Of a stretch of 64,000 nt of DNA, positions 9,245-44,231 are shown piece after piece; position 1 is the first letter of the stretch, and every line of letters begins with the position of its first letter. The notes below the pieces were generated by a model that did no database searches, was not told the origin of the DNA, and was given only the letters and a program-made list of their open reading frames with translations. Source of the DNA: Candidatus Latescibacterota bacterium (GTDB taxonomy: Bacteria; Latescibacterota; UBA2968; UBA8231); NCBI GenBank assembly GCA_965219385.1, contig CBDCNM010000002.1, positions 1,296,936-1,360,935 of the forward strand. Reading direction: 5' to 3'. The translations under genes and the position numbers were made by a program.

Positions 9245-9602
9245 TGGTGGAGGCGGCGGGAATTGAACCCGCGTCCGAAAATGGTTCTGCCCTAATATAC
9301 TACGTGCGTAGTCGATCCTTTAGTCTCATTTTCTACGGCTCCGACCGACAGGATCCGCAGAAAACCAGTTCGGTAAGTTTCGCCGAATTCCCCCGAACAA
9401 AAAAAATCGACTAGCCTGCTAAGCGTGTCACCAGGGCCGACTTCGCAGGCTTCGTCGGCCCCAGTGGACCGCCTAATTAGGCGGCCAGAGCATAACCGTT
9501 ATCAGCGTCGGTTAAATTTAGTTCCCGTGGATTAACGAGGTTGTCGGGGACCTCGGCACGCAATCCTGGCTTCTCCATCCCCGTCGAACCCAGATCGCCC
9601 CC
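9245..9602 (-). ncRNA. ssrA: tmRNA; tag peptide (A)DADNGYALAA encoded at 9509-9477
   Basis: 5' GGGGGCG pairs with 3' CGCCUCC-ACCA including G3.U; T-arm GCGGGTTCAATTCCCGC; internal ORF ending YALAA-TAA; 358 nt. Confidence 0.96.
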
Positions 9603-28519: not shown

Positions 28520-28561
28520 GGTTTGTTGTCCATCGTACTGTTAGAGTCAATCCATTTCAGG

Positions 28562-28652
28562 TAGGGTTCGCCGGTTTGCGAACCCCGAACTTGTCGAAGA
28601 GTTGCCGGAGGCTAAGCCGCCAAATGCGCCACAGAGTAACACCAACGTGTTA
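28562..28652 (-). repeat. attC-like site e (left core mutated to TAGG)
   Basis: CCGGTTTGCGAACCCCG..GTGTTA. Confidence 0.75.
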
Positions 28653-28662
28653 GGCATTGCGG

Positions 28663-29217
28663 CTATTTGTCAAATGGTAAGTACAGACTGCACCGGCACC
28701 CCAGGGCCTCCAGCCCTTTCTCATAGATCTCCTCGCACAGAGCGGCTTTTCCATCCATGTACGACTGGCGGTCATTGTCGTGCTCTTCAGCGAGTTGCCA
28801 TTTCAGGTTACTGAGTCTACGAGCATATTCGGGACTTAGTCTGAGGAAATCCCTGAAGACAAGATGCCGTTTCAAGGCTTCACCATACTTGTCACAAACG
28901 TACGTATGGTGGGCGGGTAAAGATTCTTTCAGTCCGCTATCCGACAGATCAAAAGCATCTCTTCCGGGAATACCCAGGTCACCTTCATGGAAATATCCGA
29001 TCTCTGCAAGCCGATCCTTCGTACTCTCGAAATCCTGTGGCTCAGTGACAATGTCAACGTCAATGATTGGCTTGGCGGTCATTCCGGCAACAGATGTGCT
29101 ACCGACATGCTCGAGGCTGCAATACCTTCCTGACAAAACAGAGTCAAAACGGTGTCGTAATTCTTCAAACCATGAGGGCCAGGTCGGATCATAGTGCTTT
29201 ACCAACGTAACTGACAT
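28663..29217 (-). CDS. Cassette: GrpB/UPF0157 family protein
   Basis: YDPTWP, EHVGSTSV.G..AKPIIDVD, HLVFRDFLR, Y..LK, Y..GK. Confidence 0.92.
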   Translation of the reverse strand: MSVTLVKHYDPTWPSWFEELRHRFDSVLSGRYCSLEHVGSTSVAGMTAKPIIDVDIVTEPQDFESTKDRLAEIGYFHEGDLGIPGRDAFDLSDSGLKESLPAHHTYVCDKYGEALKRHLVFRDFLRLSPEYARRLSNLKWQLAEEHDNDRQSYMDGKAALCEEIYEKGLEALGCRCSLYLPFDK

Positions 29218-29240
29218 GATTCAATTGACCGCGTTGCGCC

Positions 29241-29306
29241 TAACGTTCTGTGGGTTAATGAACTGGCGTAGCCGCCTGAAGGCGGCGCAGCATTAACCCG
29301 CTGTTA
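29241..29306 (-). repeat. attC-like site f (shortest, 66 bp)
   Basis: TAAC..GGGTTAATG..CATTAACCC..GTTA. Confidence 0.85.
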
Positions 29307-29335
29307 TCGGTCGTGGAAGCTCCGTGGCTGGTCGC

Positions 29336-29601
29336 CTACAGACGGGAAATGAGCTCCTCGTAACTAGCATGAGAGCCGATCCAGAACCAGACGATCAGTC
29401 TGCTCGCACACCCATGGCGCGGTAATCTCGTGTGATTCGGACAGCGTAGATCGGTCTCGTAGGGTGTATCTTCTTGAATCGCAAGCTCGGATGGTTCGGA
29501 TTTACCCGAAAACGGGCGTAAGCAACGGCGGCCTGAACTTGGACGTACTGGGGAAGGTCGCGTAGCGCTTCCCGAAAACGATGGGTTGTCCGGGATATCA
29601 T
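29336..29601 (-). pseudogene. Cassette: RelE/ParE-like toxin, frameshifted near 29400
   Basis: NPNHPSLRFKK..YAVRI..YRAMG, then IVWFWIGSHASYE in another frame. Confidence 0.8.
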
Positions 29602-29816
29602 GAGCCATGGGATTCAAACGGCTCAGTCCTGCCTGCGCGGTATTGAGCAAGAGCCTCATCCGCAAGGCTAGACAACTGCTCTGCTGTCGAGTCAAATGCA
29701 CGCTCCCACTGGCGCTCTGACTCTAGCTCCGCCATCAAAACGGCCGCAATCGCGTCTTGCTCATCATTCGAGAGCTTCTTGATTTCCGCAATCGCCTTTT
29801 CCAGAAGTTGAGTCAT
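29598..29816 (-). CDS. Cassette: putative antitoxin
   Basis: Acidic 72-aa MTQLLEKAI...LADEAL; ATGA overlap with the toxin. Confidence 0.78.
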   Translation of the reverse strand: MTQLLEKAIAEIKKLSNDEQDAIAAVLMAELESERQWERAFDSTAEQLSSLADEALAQYRAGRTEPFESHGS

Positions 29817-29920
29817 CAGAGTCCTCCAAATCAGGTTTACAACAGACTGGTCGGTTTCGACCAACTTAGAGTAATATACGGCAGTTCCACACGAAAGTCT
29901 TCGTCAGATTCCATGACCGC

Positions 29921-29993
29921 TAACGTTCAGGGCCTCCGAACCGCGTAGCGGTTGCGCAAAGGGCGCAAGCCCGAAGCCGGGAGCACGGTGTTA
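29921..29993 (-). repeat. attC-like site g
   Basis: TAACGTT..CGAACCGCGTAGCGGTT..GTGTTA, 73 bp. Confidence 0.88.
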
Positions 29994-30013
29994 GCTGAAG
30001 TTGATCTGTCTAG

Positions 30014-30628
30014 CTAATCAACGAGATGCTCCTTGATGGAGTCGAACCACTCCCCAAACGGTTCCTGCAATTTGGGATCTTCGGTCAACGGATGCCACAT
30101 TAGGACAAACTTGTGGTGATCAGAAAAGACTTCCCACTCAAGCTCATCACTTGCTGCGCAACTTAAGTGATAGTGCTTACGCTCAACAGTGGTCGTCAGA
30201 GCATCTTGTGGTATCCAGCCAGTTATTTGAAACGAGGTCCTATCCGAACCGAGTAACTCTTTTTCCACATAATCGATTTGTACAAAACCGTTTTCAGTCT
30301 CTCGGGTGTCAACGCGAATACCTCTTCGAATCGTGACCCAATCGAAACTGCCAGTGTCTGGTCGAGAGTATACAGTGGAAGTCTTCTGGATGACGGCTGT
30401 GTTGGGAGGTAGCTTCTCCCGTTCCGACAAAAGTTCCGCGACAACATTCAATGCGGCTAGACCAGTTTCCTCACGGGCCTCCCGGAGTGCCGCGGCGACA
30501 AAGGATTCTCCCTTTTCCACTGTCCCGGCAGGTATTTGATTTCCGGCGTAGGGGTGCTTTAGTAGGAGAAAGTGCTTTCGACCGTCCAAGCTACGCGTTA
30601 TAAAACAAGTGACCTTTCCCAGCGACAT
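30014..30628 (-). CDS. Cassette: NUDIX-domain protein
   Basis: PAGTVEKGES...AALREAREETGL. Confidence 0.85.
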   Translation of the reverse strand: MSLGKVTCFITRSLDGRKHFLLLKHPYAGNQIPAGTVEKGESFVAAALREAREETGLAALNVVAELLSEREKLPPNTAVIQKTSTVYSRPDTGSFDWVTIRRGIRVDTRETENGFVQIDYVEKELLGSDRTSFQITGWIPQDALTTTVERKHYHLSCAASDELEWEVFSDHHKFVLMWHPLTEDPKLQEPFGEWFDSIKEHLVD

Positions 30629-30665
30629 ATCACATTATTCTCTGCATTCCTGATTCAATTTCAGC

Positions 30666-30744
30666 TAACGTTCTCCGGTGTGCGAACCGGCGTAGCCGGT
30701 TTAGGCGAAGGCCGTTTAGGCCGTAGCCGCACACCCACATGTTA
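30666..30744 (-). repeat. attC-like site h
   Basis: TAACGTT..GGTGTGCG..CGCACACC..TGTTA, 79 bp. Confidence 0.88.
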
Positions 30745-30891
30745 CAAGATGTGTAATCCTCATCGTGTTGGCCAGGAAGGCCAGCACGGTGACGGCGTCC
30801 ATTTCCTGAATATAGTGAAATCTCAAGAGGATATGCTCACAGACACGACCAAAGCCAGCAACCGAGCAGTTTCCTTACTGGGACTGCTTCT

Positions 30892-31649
30892 TCATCGCAT
30901 GCGCTGGAATACAAAAAAGTCCACAGGCTCATAGACGGGCTTGTCAGGCGGTTGTTGGGCCACCCACTGCTTTAGCCTTTCCAGCCCAGCATAGCATGCC
31001 GTATCGCTGATCAAGATCAACGACGACAGACCACGCTGAGATAGCTTGGCATAATATTCTTGATACGAAGACGCAAAGTATTGGTAGACGGTCTGTTGAG
31101 CAATGAGGGTAAAACCTTGGCTGGAGACGAGGTCCACGACCTCCTGGCGGGAAGGGAGCCGTGCCTCGTCCATTTGCCGAGCCTCAGGAAAACAGGGTGC
31201 CCACTCGATTTCCATCTCGTTTTCCCTAGTTCCATTGCGGATCGCCAGGCAGCCGGATGGACTGAGCACACGCTGTATCTGTCGTATAGCCTCCACAGGA
31301 GTATCCAAATGGTGGAAAACTTGGCACATCCAAACTAGATCGGCTACGTTGTCACCAAGAGGGATATGCTCCGCTGAACCGCGCACCCAGTATACGTGCT
31401 TATATTCTCTTGCCTTGCCTTTATCCAGCATGGCATCTGACGGGTCTACTGCCGTCACAGGACAGTGGAAGGTAGTTTGCAATGATGGAATAAAACGGCC
31501 GGTCCCACAGCCTAGATCCAGTATGCTCTGAACAGAACGGAAAGGGAGCAACTGCTTCAGTACATCCACAGTTCGGATGTCTCCTCAGGCAATGCCCGCG
31601 CAGAGTCAAAGCGATTGGCTGCATCTTGGCTGCTATATGCTGAGGACAT
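30892..31649 (-). pseudogene. Cassette: class I SAM methyltransferase, frameshift near 31565
   Basis: GAGGA + ATG at 31649 gives MSSAYSS..RFDSARALPEETSELWM then TGA; continues in another frame as VLKQLL..LDLGCGTGRF. Confidence 0.75.
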
Positions 31650-31716
31650 GATTCCTCGTGCACTAATTTCCAATTAGCGGCCAGGGATGGCTGCTTCTAT
31701 GGATTGCATTTTCTTG

Positions 31717-31793
31717 TAAAGTTTTCGCCGTGTCCGAACCGCGAAGCGGTTGCCGAAGGGCCGAATGGCCCGCAACTGGGCACGGACGTGTTA
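31717..31793 (-). repeat. attC-like site i (core TAAA)
   Basis: CCGTGTCCGAACCGCGAAGCGGTT..GGGCACGG..GTGTTA. Confidence 0.82.
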
Positions 31794-31822
31794 AATGAAG
31801 TTTGCCCCAAAATGCCGGTAGT

Positions 31823-32572
31823 TCATGATGCCTCTTTGCGCGCAAGAGCAATCAGCCGCTTTGAACTAGTCCCATACGCACTCCCATCCAAATCCCCATA
31901 TAGTTGCATATTACTAAACCCAACTCGCAAGAGACGATCCTTCAGTTCCTGGCCAGAGTACAACGTGTGGTGAAACTTGAACGATCTTACCTGCTCATCC
32001 CGGATCAGGAGCCACTCGTTTCGAATCCTTGTCCAATCATCGAAGATCTCGCGACGTTGAACGAGCAATGTCCCGTCGGGATGCACCTCCGAGGAGGTCG
32101 CGGCAAATACCTTGGCCAACCACTCTTTACCCATCAGATCCATTACGAGGACTCCCCCAGGTCTGAGGCTCTCGTAAATATTGCTGAGCACTCGCAGATC
32201 CTCGTCCTTGTCATCGAAATAGCCGAAGGACGTAAACATGTTGAGCACCAAGTCGTACGATGAGGACCGCACAAAACGACGCATGTCATCCTGCACAAAC
32301 TCAACGTCTAATTTCCGCTCGCTTGCCCGCGCCGCAGCTTTTTGCAGTAGGAACGCGGTAGAATCAACTCCCGTTACGGAAAACCCTCGCTCGGCCAGGA
32401 CCGTGGAATGTCGGCCGGGGCCGCAACACAGATCTAAGATATGTGTCCCGCTGAACTCCACCAGCGAAAGAATCTTGTCGATTTCCTCCTCGGCAGATTC
32501 AAATCGCTCTTTTGGGAACATATAGGGATACATATCCGTCCAGAAGTCTTCGTTTTCAAACCATTCGGACAT
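31823..32572 (-). CDS. Cassette: class I SAM methyltransferase
   Basis: ILDLCCGPGRHS, DMR, NMFTSFGYF, LRPGG. Confidence 0.92.
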   Translation of the reverse strand: MSEWFENEDFWTDMYPYMFPKERFESAEEEIDKILSLVEFSGTHILDLCCGPGRHSTVLAERGFSVTGVDSTAFLLQKAAARASERKLDVEFVQDDMRRFVRSSSYDLVLNMFTSFGYFDDKDEDLRVLSNIYESLRPGGVLVMDLMGKEWLAKVFAATSSEVHPDGTLLVQRREIFDDWTRIRNEWLLIRDEQVRSFKFHHTLYSGQELKDRLLRVGFSNMQLYGDLDGSAYGTSSKRLIALARKEAS

Positions 32573-32627
32573 AGAACTCCAGCGTCACGTTTCGAGAAGC
32601 GTCGGGCCCCAATAGGCAAATTTCGTT

Positions 32628-32709
32628 TAACGTTCTCAGCACCCACGAACCTGGCGAAGCCAGGTTGGGCGTAGGCCCGAAAGCCCCGGAGCCGTGGGTG
32701 CACGTGTTA
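32628..32709 (-). repeat. attC-like site j
   Basis: TAACGTT..GCACCCACG..CGTGGGTGC..GTGTTA, 82 bp. Confidence 0.88.
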
Positions 32710-32772
32710 GGCGCCGTGCTGTTCCCGTCACCCAGGAGGGAACAGAGGAGCGGACATCGGTATTCCTGTCTC

Positions 32773-33723
32773 CTACATGAGATAGCGAAGCGCATCCTTG
32801 GCCCGCTGCAACTTGGTTGTATCATCAACCAGACAAGCCAGCCTGTAGAAGCCATAGAGCGTTTTAATCCGGTGAGTAAGCCTTGCGCGATCCCTCCTCA
32901 GGGTGCCGGATTCCCAATAGACGGGGGTGCAGGGATCTTCTTCAGCCGGCTCTTCGGTCCCCAGTTCGTCCTCGACATTCGGTAGGGATCTCCACAGGCG
33001 AACATGACGATGGTGGGCCTCAAGTCCTTTCTGCGCCAGGTCAACGTAGCCACACTCAGACAGATCGATCAGCGAAGCGGCATGGTTGATAATGTGCCAC
33101 AATCCCCCGAATCCCTGTCTCCGTTCGGCAGCTGTCTCAAGGAGCTCATCCAACACTGCTTCGATCATGCCCTCCAGATTGGAATACGGTCGAAAATCCG
33201 GATGTTCCGGCAACGCGATCATGTCTCCGTCGATCCGACCTTTTTCCCTCCCGTAGTAACCGCTGCCAGCTGATGCTTGGTCAAAGCCCCCGATCAATCT
33301 GCATATGCCATCAATGATAGACGATGTTGCGTGCTGGGGGTACTCCTGGAGCGCCCGAATGGACAGAGAGGCGAAGATCACGTTGTGACCTGAGGAGCGT
33401 GTTCCTCCGATGTTCCTGGATAGGACCTGGGCGATGCGGTCAATCTGATCTACCTGCGTGTCTTCGTCTGGGTAGGGCACAAACAGGTCCGATGTTGTGA
33501 TGGATCCACCCTCGCCTGGGTCAAATGCCGACTCTCCCTTGAGGACACGATCCAGTTCCTTCTCTATACCTGCATGAACCTTCCTGTCTAGTTCACGGTG
33601 TTCCTCACTGAAGAGACAGCCAGCGACAAGGGTAGCGCCCAAATGTCCCGTCATGGTATCCACAAGGTGAGCTCGGCTTAGTCCCCACAGCCCCTTTTCC
33701 AGATACTCAGGTCTAACCGCCAT
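32773..33723 (-). CDS. Cassette: hypothetical His-motif protein
   Basis: 316-aa ORF with GGAGA RBS; GHLGA, SGHNVIF, WHIINHAA, THRIK. Confidence 0.75.
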   Translation of the reverse strand: MAVRPEYLEKGLWGLSRAHLVDTMTGHLGATLVAGCLFSEEHRELDRKVHAGIEKELDRVLKGESAFDPGEGGSITTSDLFVPYPDEDTQVDQIDRIAQVLSRNIGGTRSSGHNVIFASLSIRALQEYPQHATSSIIDGICRLIGGFDQASAGSGYYGREKGRIDGDMIALPEHPDFRPYSNLEGMIEAVLDELLETAAERRQGFGGLWHIINHAASLIDLSECGYVDLAQKGLEAHHRHVRLWRSLPNVEDELGTEEPAEEDPCTPVYWESGTLRRDRARLTHRIKTLYGFYRLACLVDDTTKLQRAKDALRYLM

Positions 33724-33817
33724 ATATCTTCTCCACGCCTTGACGGAGTTAGTCAGGCAACTCCCATATGGCTTTCCGTCGCACTGCGAACAACATGGCG
33801 CCTTGTACCTTCAATAA

Positions 33818-33995
33818 TGGGCTTTAAAGACTTGCCGTCATCTCGGACTAGTGGACAAATTAGACGTACTCTGGATGAGGCCGATGACGCCTGAAGGTAG
33901 CGATCTTGTAGGTTAGATGGGCCCCCCGCCTTCTTTGCCCATACCGAGGAGTATCTGAGCCCATTGAGGCTGTATCTACAAGGTCGGTAAGCAAG
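33818..33995 (+). ncRNA. Predicted IS110 bridge RNA (ends approximate)
   Basis: LTG ATGACGCCT 33884-33892, RTG GTTAG 33912-33916, LDG GAGTATCT 33949-33956, RDG TACAAG 33977-33982, in the expected order within stem-bounded loops. Confidence 0.8.
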
Positions 33996-34044
33996 GGTCC
34001 AAGGTCAGGGGACCAGAGTCTACAATATAACCCAAGGAGTAGTC

Positions 34045-35040
34045 ATGCACCAATCCCGTCCCGTCGGCATCGATGTGAGCGCCCGCACCTTGGAGGTAGC
34101 CCTGGCGGGCCCGAACCCAAGCCGAGCGAGCGCCACGTTTGACAACACCCCCGCTGGCCATCGTCGGTTGATCCAATGGATCACCAAACGCGGTCAATCG
34201 GCCCGGGTGGGCCTGGAAGCGACCGGGGTCTATAGCTTAGAGATAGCCTTAGCCCTGCATCGTCATCCCCGTACCGAGGGGATGGTGGTCAATCCTAAAG
34301 CCATCAAAAACTATGCCGGCGCTCGCCTACAGCGGGCCAAGACCGACCCGGTCGATGCGCAGGTCCTCCTGGATTTTGTCCAGCGTATGGACTTTGTCCC
34401 CTGGCAGCCGCCCACTCAGGCGGTACTGCAGTTGCAGGCGATCACCCGGCGCATGACCCAGTTGAAGGTCGAAGTCAACCGCGAAACCAATCGCTTACAC
34501 GCCGAGGGATATCGTGTCAGCTCCACCAACTTGATTGAGCGTGATATCCAGGTCCATATCCGCCACATGCAGCGCCGGATCCAGCGTTTGGAAGAAGAGG
34601 GTATGGCACTCGTCCTATCGGTGGTCGAGCTGAGTGAAAAATTTCACCATCTGCTCTCCATCCCGGGCATTGCCCAAGCTAGTGCACTGCGGCTGATCGC
34701 TGAGTTGGCCGTATTGCCGGCCGATATGAAAGCGCCCCAATGGGTAGCGCAGGCCGGGTTGGATCCGCGACCCTATGAATCGGGTAACTCCATCCATCCG
34801 CCGCGACGCATCACCAAAGCCGGTAATAAGTATCTGCGCGCCGCCTTATATATGCCCGCCCTGGTGGCCATTCGCCATCAACCCCAGGTCAAAGCCTTTT
34901 ATGACAAGCCCATCGCCGCCGGCAAAAAGCCGCTACAGGCCATTGTCGCCGTGATGCGAAAACTGGTGCATGCTATTTGGGGCGTGTGGACCTACAACCA
35001 GGATTTCGACGGACAGAAATTTTATAAAATGGCCGCATAA
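34045..35040 (+). CDS. IS110 recombinase/transposase
   Basis: DEDD residues in GIDVS, LEATG, KTDPVDA; ESG serine; GNKYLRAALY, AVMRKL. Confidence 0.95.
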   Translation: MHQSRPVGIDVSARTLEVALAGPNPSRASATFDNTPAGHRRLIQWITKRGQSARVGLEATGVYSLEIALALHRHPRTEGMVVNPKAIKNYAGARLQRAKTDPVDAQVLLDFVQRMDFVPWQPPTQAVLQLQAITRRMTQLKVEVNRETNRLHAEGYRVSSTNLIERDIQVHIRHMQRRIQRLEEEGMALVLSVVELSEKFHHLLSIPGIAQASALRLIAELAVLPADMKAPQWVAQAGLDPRPYESGNSIHPPRRITKAGNKYLRAALYMPALVAIRHQPQVKAFYDKPIAAGKKPLQAIVAVMRKLVHAIWGVWTYNQDFDGQKFYKMAA

Positions 35041-35065
35041 GACCCTTGACTTTTAAGAGAGTATC

Positions 35066-35141
35066 TAACGTCTCAGTGCCCCCCGAACCGCGCAGCGGTT
35101 GGGCGAAGGCCCTTGTGGCCTGAGCCGGGGGCACGGTGTTA
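35066..35141 (-). repeat. attC-like site l (IS110 target)
   Basis: TAACGTC..GTGCCCCC-CGAACCGCGCAGCGGTT..GGGGGCAC-GGTGTTA. Confidence 0.88.
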
Positions 35142-35179
35142 GACGAAGGGCATTCCCGAATATCGACCTACGCCTTGGC

Positions 35180-35578
35180 CTAAACGAAAACTGAGGGTGA
35201 AACGCCAAATCGCTTGGACAAAGCACGTATCTGCCGAACGTTCAACTCCCGCCTCCCACACAGAATCTCTGAAACCACTCCTTGTGAACCCACCTCCGGC
35301 AAATCCGTCTGCCTCAATTCATGCTCCTCCATGAGAAATCGAAGGGATTCCGCTCCCTCCGTCTTGGGCATGGGATGGTGTTGTTCTTCCCAAGCATGGA
35401 CAACGGCGCCCAGCGTATCGAGCAGAGAATAAAGTGGATGCTGCTCATCCGTGCCCACTTCATCAACCAAGCTGTTGAGGCGCTCCAAGGCCAAATCGTA
35501 TTCCTGCTCGTTCTGAATCTTGAGTAGGGCACTCACTTGCGTCCATGATCGCTGAAGCTGTGGCGTAATGACACTCAT
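35180..35578 (-). CDS. higA: Cassette: HigA antitoxin (HTH)
   Basis: LRFLMEEHEL.Q.DLPEVGSQGVVSEIL.G.RELN..QI..LS.RF. Confidence 0.9.
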   Translation of the reverse strand: MSVITPQLQRSWTQVSALLKIQNEQEYDLALERLNSLVDEVGTDEQHPLYSLLDTLGAVVHAWEEQHHPMPKTEGAESLRFLMEEHELRQTDLPEVGSQGVVSEILCGRRELNVRQIRALSKRFGVSPSVFV

Positions 35579-35862
35579 GTGGTCCATCCTCCACGGTCGT
35601 AGGCTTGATGTGTAAGCACATGACGGATGTATACTTTGCCCCGATTGAAGTGAATAGAGACAATCAGGCGGTACTTGTTGCCGGCGATGTTAAACACGAC
35701 GAATTCTCCGACTTTATCGGCCGATGGAAAAGTGTGGCGCAAGGCCGCGAAACTGCTAAACTGAGTCTGCTGCATGATTTTGAACCAGCGACTCAGTGCC
35801 TTCTTACTGTCGGGATGCTGCGTCCAAAACACCCGGAGGGCTTTCCGTGAGATGACGTGCAT
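35575..35862 (-). CDS. higB: Cassette: HigB toxin
   Basis: MHVISRKAL, TFPSADKVG, VFNIAGNKYRLI, VLTH..YD; ATGA overlap with higA. Confidence 0.92.
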   Translation of the reverse strand: MHVISRKALRVFWTQHPDSKKALSRWFKIMQQTQFSSFAALRHTFPSADKVGEFVVFNIAGNKYRLIVSIHFNRGKVYIRHVLTHQAYDRGGWTT

Positions 35863-35871
35863 ATAGACAAA

Positions 35872-35897
35872 ATATCGCAAATTGCGATATATCGCAA
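35872..35897. promoter_or_regulatory. Probable HigA operator (overlapping palindromes)
   Basis: ATATCGCAA-A-TTGCGATAT overlapping TTGCGATATATCGCAA, just upstream of higB. Confidence 0.7.
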
Positions 35898-35953
35898 CTC
35901 TCCTCTGCTCCGCTGCCCATTGACCCGACCGAACGCCCTTACTGCCTTTCGGC

Positions 35954-36045
35954 TAACGTTCTTGTGTTTACGAACCCGAGCGAATGCGAGGGGTTGCCCG
36001 GCAGGGCCAAGGAGCGAGGCGACGCAGCGCAACACCGTGCTGTTA
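35954..36045 (-). repeat. attC-like site m
   Basis: TAACGTT..CGAACCC..GCAACACCGTGCTGTTA, 92 bp. Confidence 0.85.
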
Positions 36046-36079
36046 TGGGCCGTGGCACGCAATGGCCTTCATTGAAGGT

Positions 36080-36313
36080 TCAGGAGGTGGTAGGCGAAAC
36101 GTCTCTAACGTGTAAGATCTCACCCGCCAAGGGAGGACGTATTGATGAATCTTCCAGGGTCAGAACCGCGATCGTGGTGCCCTGAGTATCCACGAACTCT
36201 ACCTCCGATGCCTCGTCGTCCGCGTATCTATGCACCACCGTGCCCACATCCCCAGCCACCAGACCGTGCTCTACGATAGACTCCTCAAGAACCACCAGAT
36301 CCAATTCAGTCAT
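36080..36313 (-). CDS. Cassette: DUF4926 family protein
   Basis: ELDLVVL..GL.AGDVGTVV...EVEFVD..G.TIAVLTL. Confidence 0.85.
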   Translation of the reverse strand: MTELDLVVLEESIVEHGLVAGDVGTVVHRYADDEASEVEFVDTQGTTIAVLTLEDSSIRPPLAGEILHVRDVSPTTS

Positions 36314-36327
36314 TTCATCCTCCTTGA

Positions 36328-36661
36328 TCAGGCTGGATAGGCTGTCACCAGACGAGGCCGAGCGGAGCCAGGTTCAACAATCCAGACCGTCCGTATCCGA
36401 ACACTCGACCCTGATGGGGTTTTCACACGACCATCCACAACATACTTGGTACCATGGTGTGTCTGCATAACTTCGAAGACCTGCTCATTGCGCGCGATGG
36501 GATGCTAAATCAGCTTCCAGAACAGAGGGATCCTCTTGTCGATACCCAACACCACGGAAGAATCTCGCCTTTGCTCGACCTACGGCATGTACATCGGAAA
36601 GCAGATATTGCTCGACTTTCTCGGTTGGTATCGCCGCATTTTTTCCGTTAGGCAACTTCAT
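36328..36661 (-). pseudogene. Cassette: DUF6883-like putative toxin, frameshifted near 36500
   Basis: MKLPN...K...YLL...H..G..KARFF, then GTKYVVDG..TPSG....RTVWI......PRLVTAYPA in another frame. Confidence 0.72.
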
Positions 36662-36688
36662 AGAATCCAATTCTTATACCATGGCACA

Positions 36689-36781
36689 TAACGTTATGTC
36701 GGTTTGCGAACCCCGAGCTTGTCGAGGGGTTGCCGCAGGCCAAGCCGCCCACAGGGCAGCGCAGCGCAAAACGATGTGTTA
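36689..36781 (-). repeat. attC-like site n
   Basis: TAACGTT..GGTTTGCGAACCCC..CGCAAAACGATGTGTTA, 93 bp. Confidence 0.88.
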
Positions 36782-36819
36782 TGTGCTGTGCCTTGCTCCC
36801 TGTGGGGGTGATATCAATC

Positions 36820-37611
36820 CTAGATAGCTATGCACGTTATGGTATCGTGTGCTCGTCCAGTACAGTCACAGTGCACATATTCAATGCCATCGATTACTAT
36901 TCGCCGATTCCTTGGATACCTCTGGATTAAATCACCGCCTCGGTAGAACCGTCCGTCATATCGCCGAAATAGTACAGTTCGCCCACCGGTCTCAACGAAC
37001 GCCTCTACCAATTCTCCGCCGTTCGGCTCTGAAAGATCTACATCCAATACTCGGAGACAGTGGTGCGTGTTGCCGCCGATTGTTACATCGTATACGCCTG
37101 CTCCAATGCCCTCCCCGGCGGCGGTCTTGTACGAACCGTCATGTTGACGCCTGTAGCGACCGTCATCGAAGAGTCTGCGACTTGACGGTTCGCCCCAGTC
37201 GTCTTCGAATCCGGCATCGGTGCTTGAGTAGAACACCTTCGTATTGTCCTCGTTCTTGATTACGCCAAGCCATCTTACCTCGTCATCGTCGATTACGCCG
37301 TACATATACCCGGGGTCGAATTCGACAGACCAGTGGCAACAATTAGACCATTGATCCAGCCGAATCTCAATGCAGTCCGAGTCATGGAGCCTCGCGCGGC
37401 CCGTAGCGGCCATTTCCGTAACAGCAACAAGCTCTCGCGTCAGCGAATCATAGGCTGCCCAAGTGGTCCTTTCGCCAAGTGTTGGGACGGCAAACCACCA
37501 CTGCAACTCCAGGCAATCAATCTCATCGATTCTCTCTGAGCTCTCGACGATTCTGATGTCCGGTCGCGTAAGCGGGAACGGATGAGTGGCGCTTCCATCG
37601 GTTGTGCACAT
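36820..37611 (-). CDS. Cassette: hypothetical protein
   Basis: ORF with GGAGG RBS, bounded by sites n and o. Confidence 0.7.
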   Translation of the reverse strand: MCTTDGSATHPFPLTRPDIRIVESSERIDEIDCLELQWWFAVPTLGERTTWAAYDSLTRELVAVTEMAATGRARLHDSDCIEIRLDQWSNCCHWSVEFDPGYMYGVIDDDEVRWLGVIKNEDNTKVFYSSTDAGFEDDWGEPSSRRLFDDGRYRRQHDGSYKTAAGEGIGAGVYDVTIGGNTHHCLRVLDVDLSEPNGGELVEAFVETGGRTVLFRRYDGRFYRGGDLIQRYPRNRRIVIDGIEYVHCDCTGRAHDTITCIAI

Positions 37612-37712
37612 CACTTCGCCTCCTCCAGTCCGGGCAGGACTACGAAAATCCAGTAATACCGTGTGAGTGACCCGAAATTGACCTGACAGGTAATAACCTA
37701 GGGCATGGCACA

Positions 37713-37790
37713 TAACGTTTTCCGGTTTGCGAACCCCGAAGGGGTTGCCCGATAGGGCCGTATGGCCCGTAGCCGGGCACGGGCGTGTTA
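37713..37790 (-). repeat. attC-like site o
   Basis: TAACGTTTTCCGGTTTGCGAACCCCGAAGGGGTT..GTGTTA; contains the stop codon of the upstream gene. Confidence 0.88.
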
Positions 37791-38672
37791 GCGGAAGTCG
37801 CCCCCCGGGTTGTCACTCATTCTTCTGATCTCCCTAAGATACTCTGTGACATTCCGATCAAGCTCAAGAGGATAGGCGCAGCCTAAATGTTCTCCAACCT
37901 TGGATGCCAGCCTCCCGAACACTTCGGCTGTTTTGAACATAGCGTTCCAGTTCTCTTCAAGGTCAGCCCCCGCGAATGTCGCCTCGATATCCGACCAAAG
38001 GTCGGATTCCACCTGTTTCTTGAACCATCTGCCAAAGGCACCCGGATTGGACTTCCAGCTGTTCTGCATACCAATGTACCAGGCGATCGCAGTTCTCAGA
38101 TAGTGATGATGTAGAGAGTCGTCAAGCATATACTTGGCAAAGAATAACTCGTCCCGGAATAGGTACTTGGCTACGTAAGTTATGTTCCACCAGAAGTGGT
38201 GAACAAGCTCCTCGTATTCCCCTTCAGTTGGCTGTTTTGTCAAATACTGAGTGTAGGTCGGCGATACTGCTCCTTCGGCAAGGCCATCCTTGTCGAGAAG
38301 GACTTGATAGCCCATGTCGTTCGTATAGCCTCCATGTTCTCTGCTATCCTCTTCCATGGCTTCCGACAACATGATGTGGAAATCGATCCTTGGGACGTCC
38401 TTGAATATCACAAGGCGCCAAACGTCGTTCTCGTCCCCAATAACAGGTTTATAGGGTTCGCGGACTAAGACTTCCCCAAATATCCTTAGCCACTCGTCCC
38501 CCTCCAGGAAAGGCTGCAGGTCTTCCACAAATAGTTCGATGTCGTAGTCAGACAACGTGTCAATAGGAACGCTGGGATTTGCACGAGTACTAGTAAGGAT
38601 TACTGCTCGAACGTTCTCGTTCCCCTTGGCCCACTCCGTCACTTCTTTCGCCATGTTCTTCGTGGTATTCAT
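37788..38672 (-). CDS. Cassette: aminoglycoside 6-adenylyltransferase (AadK/ANT(6)) family protein
   Basis: VRAVILTSTRAN..D.LSDYDIE, RIDF, VLLDKDG, FWW...YVAK.L.RDEL. Confidence 0.85.
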   Translation of the reverse strand: MNTTKNMAKEVTEWAKGNENVRAVILTSTRANPSVPIDTLSDYDIELFVEDLQPFLEGDEWLRIFGEVLVREPYKPVIGDENDVWRLVIFKDVPRIDFHIMLSEAMEEDSREHGGYTNDMGYQVLLDKDGLAEGAVSPTYTQYLTKQPTEGEYEELVHHFWWNITYVAKYLFRDELFFAKYMLDDSLHHHYLRTAIAWYIGMQNSWKSNPGAFGRWFKKQVESDLWSDIEATFAGADLEENWNAMFKTAEVFGRLASKVGEHLGCAYPLELDRNVTEYLREIRRMSDNPGGDFR

Positions 38673-38712
38673 CGAGTCCTATTAGGATTCAACAGCGTCC
38701 GATATCGAGCGA

Positions 38713-38780
38713 TTTCCGCTAACTGCTTTTAGCCGCCGTGCTCATTCTCTCATAAGACGCCATATGGTGAGGCGTTAGCG
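38713..38780 (-). other. Atypical internal junction (attI-like core or aberrant short attC)
   Basis: TAACTGCTT identical to the attI core; left flank matches the right flank of site o at 14/15. Confidence 0.6.
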
Positions 38781-38790
38781 TCAGGTTCAT

Positions 38791-39303
38791 TCAAAGGACC
38801 ATACCGTACCGGATCTCTCGCAGTTCAAAACCCTCTCGCTTTTCAGTCTTCGTTAAACCCTCGGTTTTGAATCCGAATTTCTCGTAGAAGGATCTGGCTC
38901 TTTGATTGGTTTCCAAAACCCAGACTTTTACGGAGCCAAAGCCATCTCTCTCCAGGGCTGTCAAAGCGTTTTCTATCAGTGTTCTGCCGATTCCGCGATT
39001 CCAGAAATCTTCCAATACGTAGATCGAATATACCTCTCCAGTCAGGAGTCTGTTTTCCTCTTCACCTCGGAGAGGACCAAAGCTCGAGAATCCAACGATT
39101 CTCACTTCATCTTCTGCTACCAGAACACTACGCATCTGATCCTTCAGAATTTGAGTCCACGCCAGCTCCCGTTTCGCAACCGACAGCCCTTCGAGATACG
39201 AATCAGGAATCTGTCCTCGATAAGTGGCCTGCCAGGAACGAACATGGACTTCAGCGATACCCCTCACATCATCGGAATGGGCACTTCTGAATATTCTGGA
39301 CAC
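38791..39303 (-). CDS. Cassette: GNAT acetyltransferase
   Basis: HVRSWQATY.G, GEVYSIYV, GIGRTL, WVLETNQRARSFYEKFGF. Confidence 0.92.
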   Translation of the reverse strand: MSRIFRSAHSDDVRGIAEVHVRSWQATYRGQIPDSYLEGLSVAKRELAWTQILKDQMRSVLVAEDEVRIVGFSSFGPLRGEEENRLLTGEVYSIYVLEDFWNRGIGRTLIENALTALERDGFGSVKVWVLETNQRARSFYEKFGFKTEGLTKTEKREGFELREIRYGMVL

Positions 39304-39360
39304 AAAAAGCTATCTCCTAAATCGGCCGGCGCCTTCTCTCGTGCTGACTTGCATGACCGA

Positions 39361-39454
39361 TAACGTTCATCCGTTACCGAACCCCCGGAGCGTAGCGAAG
39401 GGGGTTGCCCGCAGGGCCAAGGCGCGTATGCGCCGCAGCGGGAACGGGGTGTTA
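39361..39454 (-). repeat. attC-like site p
   Basis: TAACGTT..CCGTTACCGAACCCC..GGGAACGGGGTGTTA, 94 bp. Confidence 0.88.
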
Positions 39455-39531
39455 AAGGACGTGGGATACTATCTCCCCTCAAGGTGTATCTTGAAACCAA
39501 ATTCCTATAACTGTCCCAATTCATGCGCTTG

Positions 39532-40308
39532 TTAGCGCTGTTGCGTACATTCTGGTATATCGATCAGCAACATGCCTTCTTCTTTTAAAGGATATTCAAC
39601 CAGAATGTCACCTGATTTTGAGACAAATAAAGCACCACCGAAGTAACCGCCCATTTCGTCGTCTGTCAACTGATTGACCAACATCATATTGACGCCGGCC
39701 TCTCGCGCTCGCCCGGCATAAAGGTACTTTTCCTGTCTATGCCACATAGCCATATCGGCCACATCTTCATCAAAACTGCGAGCCATAGGAAACAACAACC
39801 AGTCTGGATTTAATGCTTTCACACGAGATAAGCAGGTATTATTGAATAGATCGCCACAAAGCAAAAAGGCAGCGGTTCCAATCGGTGTAGAGGCGATTGG
39901 CACCTCGTCTCCCTGGGCATAAATCGGAAAAGGACAAGGCCGATTATGCCAGTGATGCCAACACGGATCGATACGACGATATCGCATACGAATGACACCA
40001 TCAGGACCAATTAGAATAGCCGTGTCATAGAGGCGATCCTCATTTCGTTCAAAAAGCCCCGTTGCCAGCCATATTCGGCATCTGGCTGCAAGCTGGCAAA
40101 GTGCCTCTGAAGCAGCTCTGGGAATAGATTGACCAAGAGACAGATCATAATCGGGGTTCCCGGTGTTCACTAATCCTGTAATCGCTGCTTCGGAAAAAAC
40201 AACCATCTCTGCATTAACATTTGCGGCATCCTCAGTCATTTGCATCAAGCCGGAGAGAGTATCCTGCCGATTTAATTTTACTTGGGGGACACCAAGAGCC
40301 ACTTTCAC
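39532..40308 (-). CDS. Cassette: carbon-nitrogen hydrolase (nitrilase superfamily)
   Basis: VVFSEAAITG, LYDTAILIGPDG, YRR, LLCGD; catalytic Lys position appears to be Arg. Confidence 0.85.
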   Translation of the reverse strand: MKVALGVPQVKLNRQDTLSGLMQMTEDAANVNAEMVVFSEAAITGLVNTGNPDYDLSLGQSIPRAASEALCQLAARCRIWLATGLFERNEDRLYDTAILIGPDGVIRMRYRRIDPCWHHWHNRPCPFPIYAQGDEVPIASTPIGTAAFLLCGDLFNNTCLSRVKALNPDWLLFPMARSFDEDVADMAMWHRQEKYLYAGRAREAGVNMMLVNQLTDDEMGGYFGGALFVSKSGDILVEYPLKEEGMLLIDIPECTQQR

Positions 40309-40434
40309 GCTATATGGTTCCTCTTAAGCTTGAACAGCCCAAACTCATTATTAAACTGCGAAAATTCAGTATCTCTCTTTTAAATTTGGAGGCATACTGA
40401 ATAGATATCTGTCTCACCTTCATCCCATGTCCTG

Positions 40435-40511
40435 TAACGTTTCGCCGTGCTCGAACCGCGAAGCGGTTGGGCGAAGGGCCGTATGGCCCGTAGCCGGGCA
40501 CGGTCGTGTTA
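40435..40511 (-). repeat. attC-like site q
   Basis: TAACGTT..CCGTGCTCGAACCGCGAAGCGGTT..CGGGCACGG..GTGTTA. Confidence 0.88.
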
Positions 40512-40523
40512 AGAGAAGTGCGT

Positions 40524-41234
40524 TCAATCCAATCGTTCGAGGACGGGCTTTAGATCAAGCAAAGATCGGATAACAAGTCCCGAACTCACATCCACGTGAC
40601 CGATTCGGTCGATGAGCACGGAAATCATATTCGCTCGTCTCGCACCCATAATGTCCCACCTTGGATTATCTCCGACAAACAGGCATTCCTCTGGTTTGCA
40701 TCCAAAATGATCCAATGCCCGGCGAAACATAGGTTGGGCGGGCTTCCGCCACCCTACATCCGAACAAAAGATAGCCACCTCGCATCGCGTCGAAAGGCCA
40801 TGTCGCCGCAGTTCTTCAAACCAGGGCTCGCTCGGTGAACCCCAAGGACAGTTCGACAGGATTCCTACGCGGCAGCCATCCGCCAGATGCGCATCTAGAG
40901 CCGGAAGGGTGTCTTCATAGATCTTGGCAATAGAAAGGATTGGCGTGAGGAAGGCACGACAGATCGGCAGCCACTCTTCCTCCGAAACGCAAGGTGCGAC
41001 CGCAAAGATACGACCAAGCCTCTTGTGGAGTGGGCGAACGCGACTGTTTTTGGCTTCGTAGTTCTCAGTCGCGACACCGCGCTCGATCTCAGAATCCGAA
41101 GGCAAATCGTGTCCCGAACGCTCCAGTGCCTCTTTGGCTGCGTGAATTCCTGCCCGCAGCAAAGGAGGAAACTCTTCCCTGCGATAGTACTGGACAAGGG
41201 TGTCGCCAAGGTCAAACAGAAGAACTGGTCTCAA
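40524..41234 (-). CDS. Cassette: HAD-family hydrolase
   Basis: FDLGDTL, ILSN, GWRKP, FVGDNPRWDI.GA. Confidence 0.9.
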   Translation of the reverse strand: MRPVLLFDLGDTLVQYYRREEFPPLLRAGIHAAKEALERSGHDLPSDSEIERGVATENYEAKNSRVRPLHKRLGRIFAVAPCVSEEEWLPICRAFLTPILSIAKIYEDTLPALDAHLADGCRVGILSNCPWGSPSEPWFEELRRHGLSTRCEVAIFCSDVGWRKPAQPMFRRALDHFGCKPEECLFVGDNPRWDIMGARRANMISVLIDRIGHVDVSSGLVIRSLLDLKPVLERLD

Positions 41235-41271
41235 ACCTGAAACTCCTACTCGTCTCTTAAAGCATTTCGCT

Positions 41272-41356
41272 TAACGTCTCGCCGGTTTGCGAACCCGCGA
41301 AGCGGTTGCCGAAGGCCAAGGCGGCGTAGCCGCCGCAGCGCAACACCGTGCTGTTA
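41272..41356 (-). repeat. attC-like site r
   Basis: TAACGTC..CGGTTTGCGAACC..CGCAACACCG..TGTTA, 85 bp. Confidence 0.88.
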
Positions 41357-41453
41357 CACGATTGCGGCTCTGCAACGCACGAAATAAACACGCAAACGCC
41401 TATGATGGCTGGGCGATTGCCTTGGCAATCAAGAGTGTCGGTACAATTCTCTC

Positions 41454-42164
41454 TCAACACCTCTCCACCGATTTTGCTACAGAACCAAGCGGTTCAGAGA
41501 TCTCGGCAAGTTGGAATCCACTTCTGATCAAGGTATTGAAGTACGTTGAAAGCGTTCGGTGGTGGCTGCCAAGCGTGCCACACATCCCGATTCCATCGGA
41601 GTACCATTTGCCTTCAAGGCCATACCGTGAAACACGCAATGCCTTGAAATTTCCCGCTTCGTCCAACTCCTCCTGTGGATTCTCTGCATTGAACGGAGTG
41701 AAAAAGCACGGATGTAGAATTGTGAAGATGAACTTGCCATTGTCGAGAAGTATCCGACGGACATTGAACAATGTTGCCGTTAGGTCAGGGATATCCATGA
41801 GTGTCATGTTGCAAATAACAGCATCCATGCTGGCGTCGGACACCTGATTCAGCGATTGTGCATCGTCCAGGACATACGTGATGCCGTGGTCATCAGAATG
41901 CTCCTTTGCATGCCGCAACAGCATCTGTGAAATGTCCACACCTGTAACGAGAGCGCCCCGACTCGCTAGGATGCGAGACAGATACCCTTCACCGCATCCC
42001 AAGTCACATACACTGATTCCTTGGACATCGCCCAGCATAGTCAGCATGATTTCTACCGAGGGCTGGATACGCCTATCCCTATCCGGAACATTCCTATCCA
42101 GCCAGTTGAGATAGAAATCACCTGCCTTGTCATATTCAGATTCTGTCAACTCATCGATGCGCAT
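41454..42164 (-). CDS. Cassette: class I SAM methyltransferase
   Basis: DLGCGEGYLSR, GVDIS, LMDIPDL, HPCF, HRTLSTY. Confidence 0.9.
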   Translation of the reverse strand: MRIDELTESEYDKAGDFYLNWLDRNVPDRDRRIQPSVEIMLTMLGDVQGISVCDLGCGEGYLSRILASRGALVTGVDISQMLLRHAKEHSDDHGITYVLDDAQSLNQVSDASMDAVICNMTLMDIPDLTATLFNVRRILLDNGKFIFTILHPCFFTPFNAENPQEELDEAGNFKALRVSRYGLEGKWYSDGIGMCGTLGSHHRTLSTYFNTLIRSGFQLAEISEPLGSVAKSVERC

Positions 42165-42227
42165 AGTCTCACTCCCGTTGGGGCATGGGATCTAAGAATG
42201 ATGCAAACCCGTCACGCCGCTTTCGTG

Positions 42228-42310
42228 TAACGTTACTGCGGGCTGCGAACTTGCCGCAGGCAAGTTAGGTCGGAGGCCCGAAAGGGCCGGAGCCGTAGCC
42301 CGACGTGTTA
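42228..42310 (-). repeat. attC-like site s (first cassette)
   Basis: TAACGTT..CGGGCTGCG..CGTAGCCCG..GTGTTA, 83 bp. Confidence 0.88.
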
Positions 42311-42337
42311 CCTGCCGTTAGCCTCTCCGAGTGCGGA

Positions 42338-43319: not shown

Positions 43320-43344
43320 CTGTTTGCTTGGGAGAAAATGCGCC

Positions 43345-44231
43345 ATGCGGCGATATCGAAGACACCCGGATCTGACGAATGATGAGCTGATTACCCTCAA
43401 CCGGGTCGAGTCGGAGCTGAAGCTGAGGGGGTACGCCAGGAAAACGCAGAAATCCTACATGGGATGCTGCCGCCGTTTCCTGCAATGGAAACGGCGCTAT
43501 CGCGGTGACCGGCAGGCCGAAGTGAGATCGCATCTGGAGGAGCTCGTCGACCAGGGCGTGAGCCGCTCCGCCTTCAACATCGCATACAGTGCTCTGCGCT
43601 TTCTCTACGGGGAAGTCCTGAAGCAGCCGGCCCCCCTAAAAGGACTGCGAAGGCCACGGGGCGGCCGGCCGCTGCCGGTGATTCTGGGCCAGCGGGAAGT
43701 GCTGCGGCTGCTCGATGCGCTCGGCAATCCGAAACACCGGGTCCTCTTTGCCCTGCTGTATGCCGGGGGGCTGCGAGTGGGCGAGGTCGTGCGTCTCAAG
43801 GTGAGCGACATCGACAGCGAACGCATGTTGATCCGGGTGCAACAAGGCAAGGGGCGAAAGGATCGGTATACCTTGCTTCCCAAGGCGATTCTGGAGGATC
43901 TTCGGTCCTACTGGAAGGCGTACCGGCCGTCGACGTGGCTGTTCCCCGGGGCGCGGGCCGGCCGGCATCTCACGGAACGGACTGTGCAGAAGGTGTTCTC
44001 CCGGGCTGTGGCCGCTGCGGGCATCCGGAAGCGGGTAACGGTCCACACGCTGAGACACAGCTTTGCAACGCACCTGCTGGAGGGGGGCACCGATCTCGCT
44101 ACATACAGGAACTCCTCGGGCACACGAGCTCGAGATCGACGGAAATCTACACGCATGTGAGGCGGAAGGATCTCGTGCGGATCAAGAGTCCACTCGACGC
44201 GTTGTTGGACCACACCGGTCGATCTGGTTAG
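43345..44231 (+). pseudogene. Integron-integrase-like tyrosine recombinase lacking the IntI I2 insertion; 1-nt frameshift at ~44097
   Basis: SAM_4-like N-terminus, LP.IL, LLYAGGLR, GKGRKDR, HTLRHSFATHLLE; RYIQELLGH...TEIYTHV...SPLD lies in another frame ending 44231. Confidence 0.88.

Follow-up and report, generated by a model that had tools for sequence, protein, structure and literature searches.

The window, a stretch of 64,000 nucleotides from a Candidatus Latescibacterota bacterium, carries an IS110-group insertion sequence within an array of integron cassettes, and very probably this element is an IS621-type bridge recombinase whose target loop carries a natural programme for the consensus of integron cassette junctions. 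Sequence comparison confirms positions 33802-35066 as an IS621-like IS110-group element with a predicted bridge RNA in its left end, and the features on which this reading is based are collected in Table 1.

Table 1. Features of the insertion sequence, its predicted bridge RNA and the surrounding cassette array (window coordinates)
Feature	Positions	Strand	Remarks
IS110-group insertion sequence, 1,265 bp with both CT cores	33802..35066	+	the genome's sole full copy
Long left end, 243 bp including core	33802..34044	+	starts CT-TGTAC (right donor)
IS110 recombinase, 331 aa	34045..35040	+	D10/E58/D101/D104 and S246-G247 intact
Short right end	35041..35066	+	-35-like TTGACT (35046-35051), left donor AGAGTAT
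Left target ATGGCGC	33795..33801	+	first downstream-cassette bases after GTTAG (top strand -)
Predicted bridge RNA, target loop and donor loop	33863..34026	+	consensus fold, pair counts, purpose-built model R1 (window among its training sequences); approximate ends
Left target guide (LTG) ATGACGCCT	33884..33892	+	8/9 match to left target plus core
Right target guide (RTG) AGGTTAG	33910..33916	+	GTTAG itself at 33912-33916; attC-guided relatives have ACGTTAG
Target-loop handshake guide AT	33917..33918	+	pairs with donor positions 7 and 6
Left donor guide (LDG) GAGTATCT	33949..33956	+	
Right donor guide (RDG) (T)CTACAAG	33975..33982	+	TACAAG at 33977-33982
Donor-loop handshake guide GT	33983..33984	+	pairs with target positions 7 and 6
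attC site with the insertion in its R' box	35063..35144	-	R' now GTTAGAT
Downstream-cassette ORF, 316 aa	32773..33723	-	no Pfam match at E<=0.001; the insertion sequence sits in the 5' leader of this cassette
Downstream-cassette attC	32625..32713	-	its R'' GGCGCCTAAC complements the empty junction
Upstream cassette	35180..35880	-	HigB-type toxin and HTH antitoxin
Integron integrase-like tyrosine recombinase gene	43324..44231	+	frameshift near 44095 in the assembly
Cassette array	28560..42313	-	14 attC profile matches in the span (3 more farther downstream)

The element lies between CT cores at 33802-33803 and 35065-35066, its ends read CT-TGTAC (left) and AGAGTAT-CT (right), and it is flanked by ATGGCGC on the left and AAC on the right; the boundaries and ends given in an earlier note on this DNA could thus be reproduced. 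The recombinase matches PF01548 (DEDD) and PF02371 at 88 and 73 bits, both over their cut-offs, and NF033542 at 206 bits (cut-off 140). Its residues D10, E58, D101, D104 and S246-G247 are aligned to D11, E60, D102, D105 and S241-G242 of IS621, and its only relatives in the PDB are ISCro4 and IS621. A 243-bp left end against a right end of 26 bp and the dinucleotide core CT correspond to the IS110-group layout of a long left end, a short right end and a dinucleotide core, as described in PMC11208160. The likeness to IS621 and ISCro4 (PMC11208160, PMC11208158) covers the DEDD and Tnp serine features of the protein (phmmer E of 3e-39 and 8e-42), the position of the bridge RNA in the long left end, the LTG-RTG-LDG-RDG order and the CT core. 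Also, the donor of IS621 was called very similar in the earlier note, and indeed 12 of the 14 positions of ACAGTAT-CT-TGTAT, the IS621 donor in the PMC11208160 supplement, are identical; the handshake guides AT and GT are those of wild-type IS621. The differences are that the target in the window is an integron cassette junction and not a REP element, that the protein is distant and that the target core can be AT in the relatives of one genome (G152, see below). The computed circle junction reads a -35-like TTGACT, 17 nt and a -10-like TACCTT. No circle joint was found in contigs from four sequencing runs (assembled contigs, not raw reads), and an Rfam search matched no family inside the element.

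The attC array around the element is clear and an integrase-like gene heads the cassettes. The R' box of an attC site is split by the insertion (top strand G|TTAG^GCGCCAT), 4 nt beyond the point of integrase crossover, which is G|TT in this box. The downstream R'' GGCGCCTAAC is a 10-nt complement of the rebuilt junction GTTAGGCGCC, and in three of four runs (from two studies, with the source sample possibly among them) a contig joins position 33803, free of the insertion sequence, to another attC end starting AACG; these two independent observations establish the empty target ATGGCGC-CT-AAC that had been read from the sequence earlier. A profile made from 13 attC sites of the window has 48 matches in the genome, 45 of them at E<=0.001. 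Five of the 48 (three with E>0.001, two without a readable R') were left out of the junction set, giving 43 parsed junctions, 37 of them unique and 36 without the occupied one; C2:1994081 is misparsed but included. Against TIGR02249 the integrase-like protein reaches 181 bits, below the cut-off of 265, and its gene is frameshifted: HTLRHSFATHLLEGGTDL carries on in another frame as RYIQELLGH...TEIY, so that the frameshift near 44095, either a real pseudogene or an assembly indel, puts the catalytic tyrosine out of frame. A second integrase, 49% identical, is present in this genome (G000) at C1:888235-888933. Many terminal attC sites in its arrays (for example, C1:889948, C1:1325666 and C2:3384305) end in GTTGGGCCGCC and not in GTTA, which suggests a preferred secondary integration site, and identical attC pairs occur repeatedly on C1 and C2. 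Elsewhere in the window, an attC at about 28560-28660 (-) has its R' end replaced by ..ACCCTAC-CTGAAATG, a possible intron scar, and a tmRNA gene (RF00023) lies at 9245-9602 (-).

The order LTG-RTG-LDG-RDG that had been proposed for the left end is most unlikely to be fortuitous: in 5,000 shuffles that kept the dinucleotides of the left end, all four guides in order never came up; singly, they occurred in 89 (LTG), 1519 (GTTAG), 35 (LDG) and 307 (TACAAG) of the 5,000. When 13 related left ends were aligned, the RNAalifold consensus fold showed two internal loops, each closed by stems, and left all four guides unpaired. In this fold 94% of cells pair, as against 29-52% for slid controls, and 10 of the 26 consensus pairs are changed on both sides, far over the slid controls, with the covariation sitting almost wholly in the donor-loop stems. 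The guides thus stand in stem-closed loops as had been claimed, and the check proposed for it, that they should avoid the paired stems of a consensus fold, was passed. In the window RNA folded alone, part of the LTG pairs with the RTG (mean unpaired probability 0.34 for the LTG and 0.41 for the RTG), and this counts against the loop reading. Single-sequence folds of relatives, including those with many copies, likewise partly pair the guides. Over 12 distinct elements the guides match their own targets at 0.75 versus 0.34 for non-cognate ones, and none of 100,000 permutations was as high, kin among the 12 not being independent. The donor-loop handshake base, in the sense of the handshake guides of PMC11208158, pairs with target position 7 in all but one of 14 copies, by Watson-Crick pairing in 10 and by wobble in 3, and in one relative (L010) donor, donor guide and handshake are altered together. 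A predicted two-loop RNA in which LTG/RTG and LDG/RDG covary with target and donor, the mark of the IS110 group, is therefore found here.

The spacing T-N6-TAAC, earlier described as conserved, is present in 23 of the 23 other TAAC-bearing junctions of the genome and in 21% of 9,420 genomic NTAAC sites. The LTG matches junctions at 3.33 of 7 positions on average against a background of 1.68 and falls in the top 0.44% of all 16,384 7-mers when these are scored against the 36 other junctions; the left guides of the relatives L104 and L010 fall in the top 0.29% and 0.09%, respectively. Of seven guides taken from relatives that are not at attC, that of L009 ranks at 3% and the other six at 21-91%. 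On the right side, AACGT occupies positions 10-14 in 31-36 of the 36 junctions. CT-AAC, on the other hand, is present in only 8 of the 36, and among the 1,478 genomic CTAAC sites 21 match the LTG at 5/7, just 2 of these 21 being inside attC matches, which make up about 0.1% of the genome. The window guide alone is loose and not exclusive to attC.

Apart from the window element, the genome has only one relic, 95 bp of left end with the same LTG (C2:756681-756775). It adjoins the start of a cassette in another attC cluster and keeps the relative orientation of the window copy. The R'' of the adjoining cassette complements the rebuilt junction, and the site matches the LTG at 4/7. The region around it (C2:751027-762506) has four attC sites and no integrase match nearby, and the relic precedes a toxin-antitoxin-like cassette. 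Relatives were sought in 101, 76, 168 and 60 genomes and in two collection scans, and those found share 55-89% identity, among them P0002-P0016 at 69-85%; the closest named ones are labelled Latescibacterota (L115, P0017). L010 (genome G021, 55% amino acid identity) is inserted at the same R' base as the window copy and has the right guide ACGTTAG, and the same holds for all three full copies of G152 (L151-L153, 57-59%), which lie in three arrays; two of these arrays have an integrase at a distance of no more than 20 kb. Full-length relatives with an attC-type right guide are thus at the same R' base in 4/4 cases, at four other attC sites in two genomes, and together with the window copy (L001) intact copies with such a guide are at attC R' in 5/5; L001, L010 and L151-L153 share the fixed insertion position in attC by which attC-targeting IS1111 elements are recognized. 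The downstream R'' confirms the rebuilt junctions at three G152 sites, and two of the targets had an AT core, which fits cutting 3' of the core as in IS621.

No attC profile match, by the profile built from this genome, was found near 48 full-length copies with other guides (18 in G061, 18 of at least 36 in G077, 6 in G068, 2 in G057, and L002, L008, L009 and L071), nor within about 1.5 kb of the relics L163, L188, L191, L192 and L207, which have an attC-type right guide. L104 (1-115 and 855-945), an internally deleted relative of 82% identity, has a perfect attC guide and a non-canonical junction with a one-base core, and lies between an attC hairpin and sequence that resembles the 5' end of a group IIC intron. 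A large cassette array at L145 (G021 C2:1-20000) has several attC sites preceded by GTTCTCGACCCTAC, presumably resembling the 3' end of a group II intron, and repeated intron-like ORFs. The 60 genomes around G152 contained no more close copies, and tblastn against plasmids found no close relative (best 48% identity). A 16-nt junction pattern gave four matches in viral contigs, none with a transposase or a credible attC, and these are attributed to chance. R'' (inverse core) was also considered as a target and matches the LTG at up to 5/7, but no examined copy lies there. Mapping of other copies, which the earlier note had called for, thus bore out its expectation. Its broader claim of an RNA-guided recombinase specialized on cassette junctions is supported by the relic and by the 4/4 relatives, with the provisos that a CT target core is not needed (AT at two of the three G152 sites) and that attC is one of several programmes of the lineage.

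These programmes have been exchanged repeatedly. In a tree of 15 proteins rooted on two Rhodothermales proteins, the attC-guided lineages L001, L010 and L152 need three changes, and a single clade of attC-guided lineages is rejected (AU p=0.002, the group having been named from its targets after a preliminary tree had already been seen). As these lineages do not form one clade, aiming at attC was either repeatedly gained or is old and was repeatedly abandoned, and the spread of ACGTTAG among relics keeps the latter possible. L002, L008 and L071, with guides of the type A(G)AAATA..CT / GTGAG, are inserted about 30 nt upstream of an IS3-type orfA (HTH_Tnp_1 at E 1e-19 for the neighbour of L002, and similar N-termini for those of L008 and L071); these are insertion sequences aimed at another insertion sequence. 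The copies of G061 and G077 represent an expansion in tandem repeats of CTCTTAC/CTCTCGC-type heptamers, with matching guides, and the relatives in G057 lie in palindromic repeats.

For IS621, excision, a junction promoter, RNA-guided synapsis and strand exchange at the core have been described (PMC11208160, PMC11208158). By analogy, the window element would excise as a circle, its joined ends would form a promoter and the left-end RNA would be made. The donor loop would bind the circle junction AGAGTAT-CT-TGTA, and the target loop would bind N7-[C/A]T-AACGT, that is, the bottom strand of the attC R' box and the opening 7 nt of the cassette that follows. Once recombined beside the dinucleotide core, the element would lie in the opposite orientation to the cassette genes, its insertion point being 4 nt downstream of G|TT, the IntI crossover. 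With the insertion point so close behind the crossover, a GTTRRRY box is restored by the donor end: the R' after insertion is GTTAGAT or GTTAGGT in all five intact copies. With the insertion, the bottom strand of the upstream attC has a fold of undiminished stability (-25.9 vs -24.7 kcal/mol). The attC of the circularized next cassette folds worse with the insertion sequence (-24.4 vs -28.5 kcal/mol), with its R box unpaired in the minimum-energy fold, so that riding on the cassette is only plausible. We tentatively propose, as something that is possible though not probable, that the lineage was programmed more than once (or ancestrally, with repeated later departures) to a junction formed only by integron recombination, that the upstream attC stays usable, and that the insertion sequence, as cargo of the next cassette, rides on IntI excision and shuffling and leaves the site uncrippled.

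Other explanations of the location can be weighed against programming of the target loop. An accident, in which short motifs of a 243-nt end match by chance and the element landed in attC by chance, deserves practically no credence; each motif is indeed short, and GTTAG alone turns up in 30% of shuffles, but the reading is refuted by the shuffles with all four guides in order, by the covariation of guides with targets across relatives, and by the register that the full copy, the relic and four relatives share in attC matches despite the small share of the genome that these represent. It is a more serious, yet still unlikely, alternative that the guide is loose and that attC is chosen mainly by DNA structure, with hairpin extrusion opening R', or by purging elsewhere, which would make the element an opportunist and not a specialist. 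The 19 of 21 best genomic LTG plus CTAAC matches that lie outside attC matches speak for it, as do the occupied sites, which fit the LTG at just 4-6 of 7, and the residence of several relatives in repeats or hairpins (the heptamers of G061 and G077, the palindromic repeats of G057). The 7-nt right guide ACGTTAG, however, equals the conserved R' end, the left guides of three separate lineages fit the junction consensus, and a single insertion base is used across all five intact cases.

Compatible with arrival by a programmed target loop is the idea that the window copy is now a decayed passenger, placed by an attC-programmed ancestor and since inactive, and we regard this as quite conceivable, if somewhat less probable than not. 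Its frame is open, the DEDD and serine residues and both ends are intact, and contigs of runs X2 and X3 contain the identical sequence, all of which argue against decay. Signs of decay are private substitutions at conserved residues of the recombinase (G79, D116 and V308, where 56, 55 and 59 of 60 have V, P and L, respectively), an A-C mismatch that breaks the outer pair of the target-loop stem, the right guide AGGTTAG instead of ACGTTAG, the single full copy, and the -10-like TACCTT where most relatives have TATCTT.

RNA-guided attC targeting by a seekRNA is reported for the IS1111 elements ISKpn4, ISPst6 and ISPa25 (PMC11187229), and attC targeting has been seen for ISPa21 (PMC11616780); the earlier statement that the known attC-targeting insertion sequences belong to the IS1111 group thus agrees with PMC11187229 for the three elements. 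Like the window element, these are RNA-guided IS110-family elements inserting at a fixed attC position. They differ in that their RNA lies downstream of the transposase and that they have subterminal inverted repeats, whereas the RNA of the window element is upstream and its right end has 26 bp. The downstream RNA and long right end that define the IS1111-attC group are absent from the window element, and by eye just a 3-bp AAG/CTT pair is seen to flank its donor, where the subterminal inverted repeats of IS1111 elements have 7-17 bp. The insertion register within attC likely differs from the IS1111 position. PMC11208160 lists unnamed orthologues of IS621 in its Supplementary Data 1-2, and among these, target rows of the form ..CTTAAACGCTTTGTTA.. 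(at least 18) or ..CTTGAAGCGTTTGTTA.. (at least 11) resemble attC R' ends. Those rows centre on the top-strand GT (G|TT), unlike the window lineage, which centres on the bottom-strand [C/A]T, 4 nt further, and none of the supplement rows listed matches ACGTTAGAT. In the parts of the PMC11208160 main text considered here, attC appears only in a reference and the natural GT-centred rows are not called attC. These GT-centred rows look like attC R' ends, judging by their letters, and insertion into attC by IS110-group elements is therefore probably latent in public data. Group IIC-attC introns (PMC3001079) are also mobile elements specialized on attC sites, but they are retrohoming ribozymes with a reverse transcriptase, an unrelated chemistry. 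No IS110-group attC specialist is described in the portions covered of the literature searched, which included PMC9229058, PMC11089894, PMC12444791 and 10.64898/2026.08.14.744561. The mechanism itself is known, and the window element reveals no new one; the IS110-group lineage and its landing point seem to be undescribed.

Within a single recombinase lineage, reprogramming of the guides can be read here as a natural series, whose targets are attC junctions, tandem heptamers, palindromic repeats and the start of an IS3-type element. The same series shows co-varying handshake bases and a natural mismatch of the cores, with AT in the target and CT in the donor. Two questions become testable: whether an insertion sequence can parasitize integron arrays and yet spare attC, and whether a degenerate family of sites can be recognized by bridge RNAs. 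The lineage also supplies candidate recombinases that are already aimed at cassette junctions.
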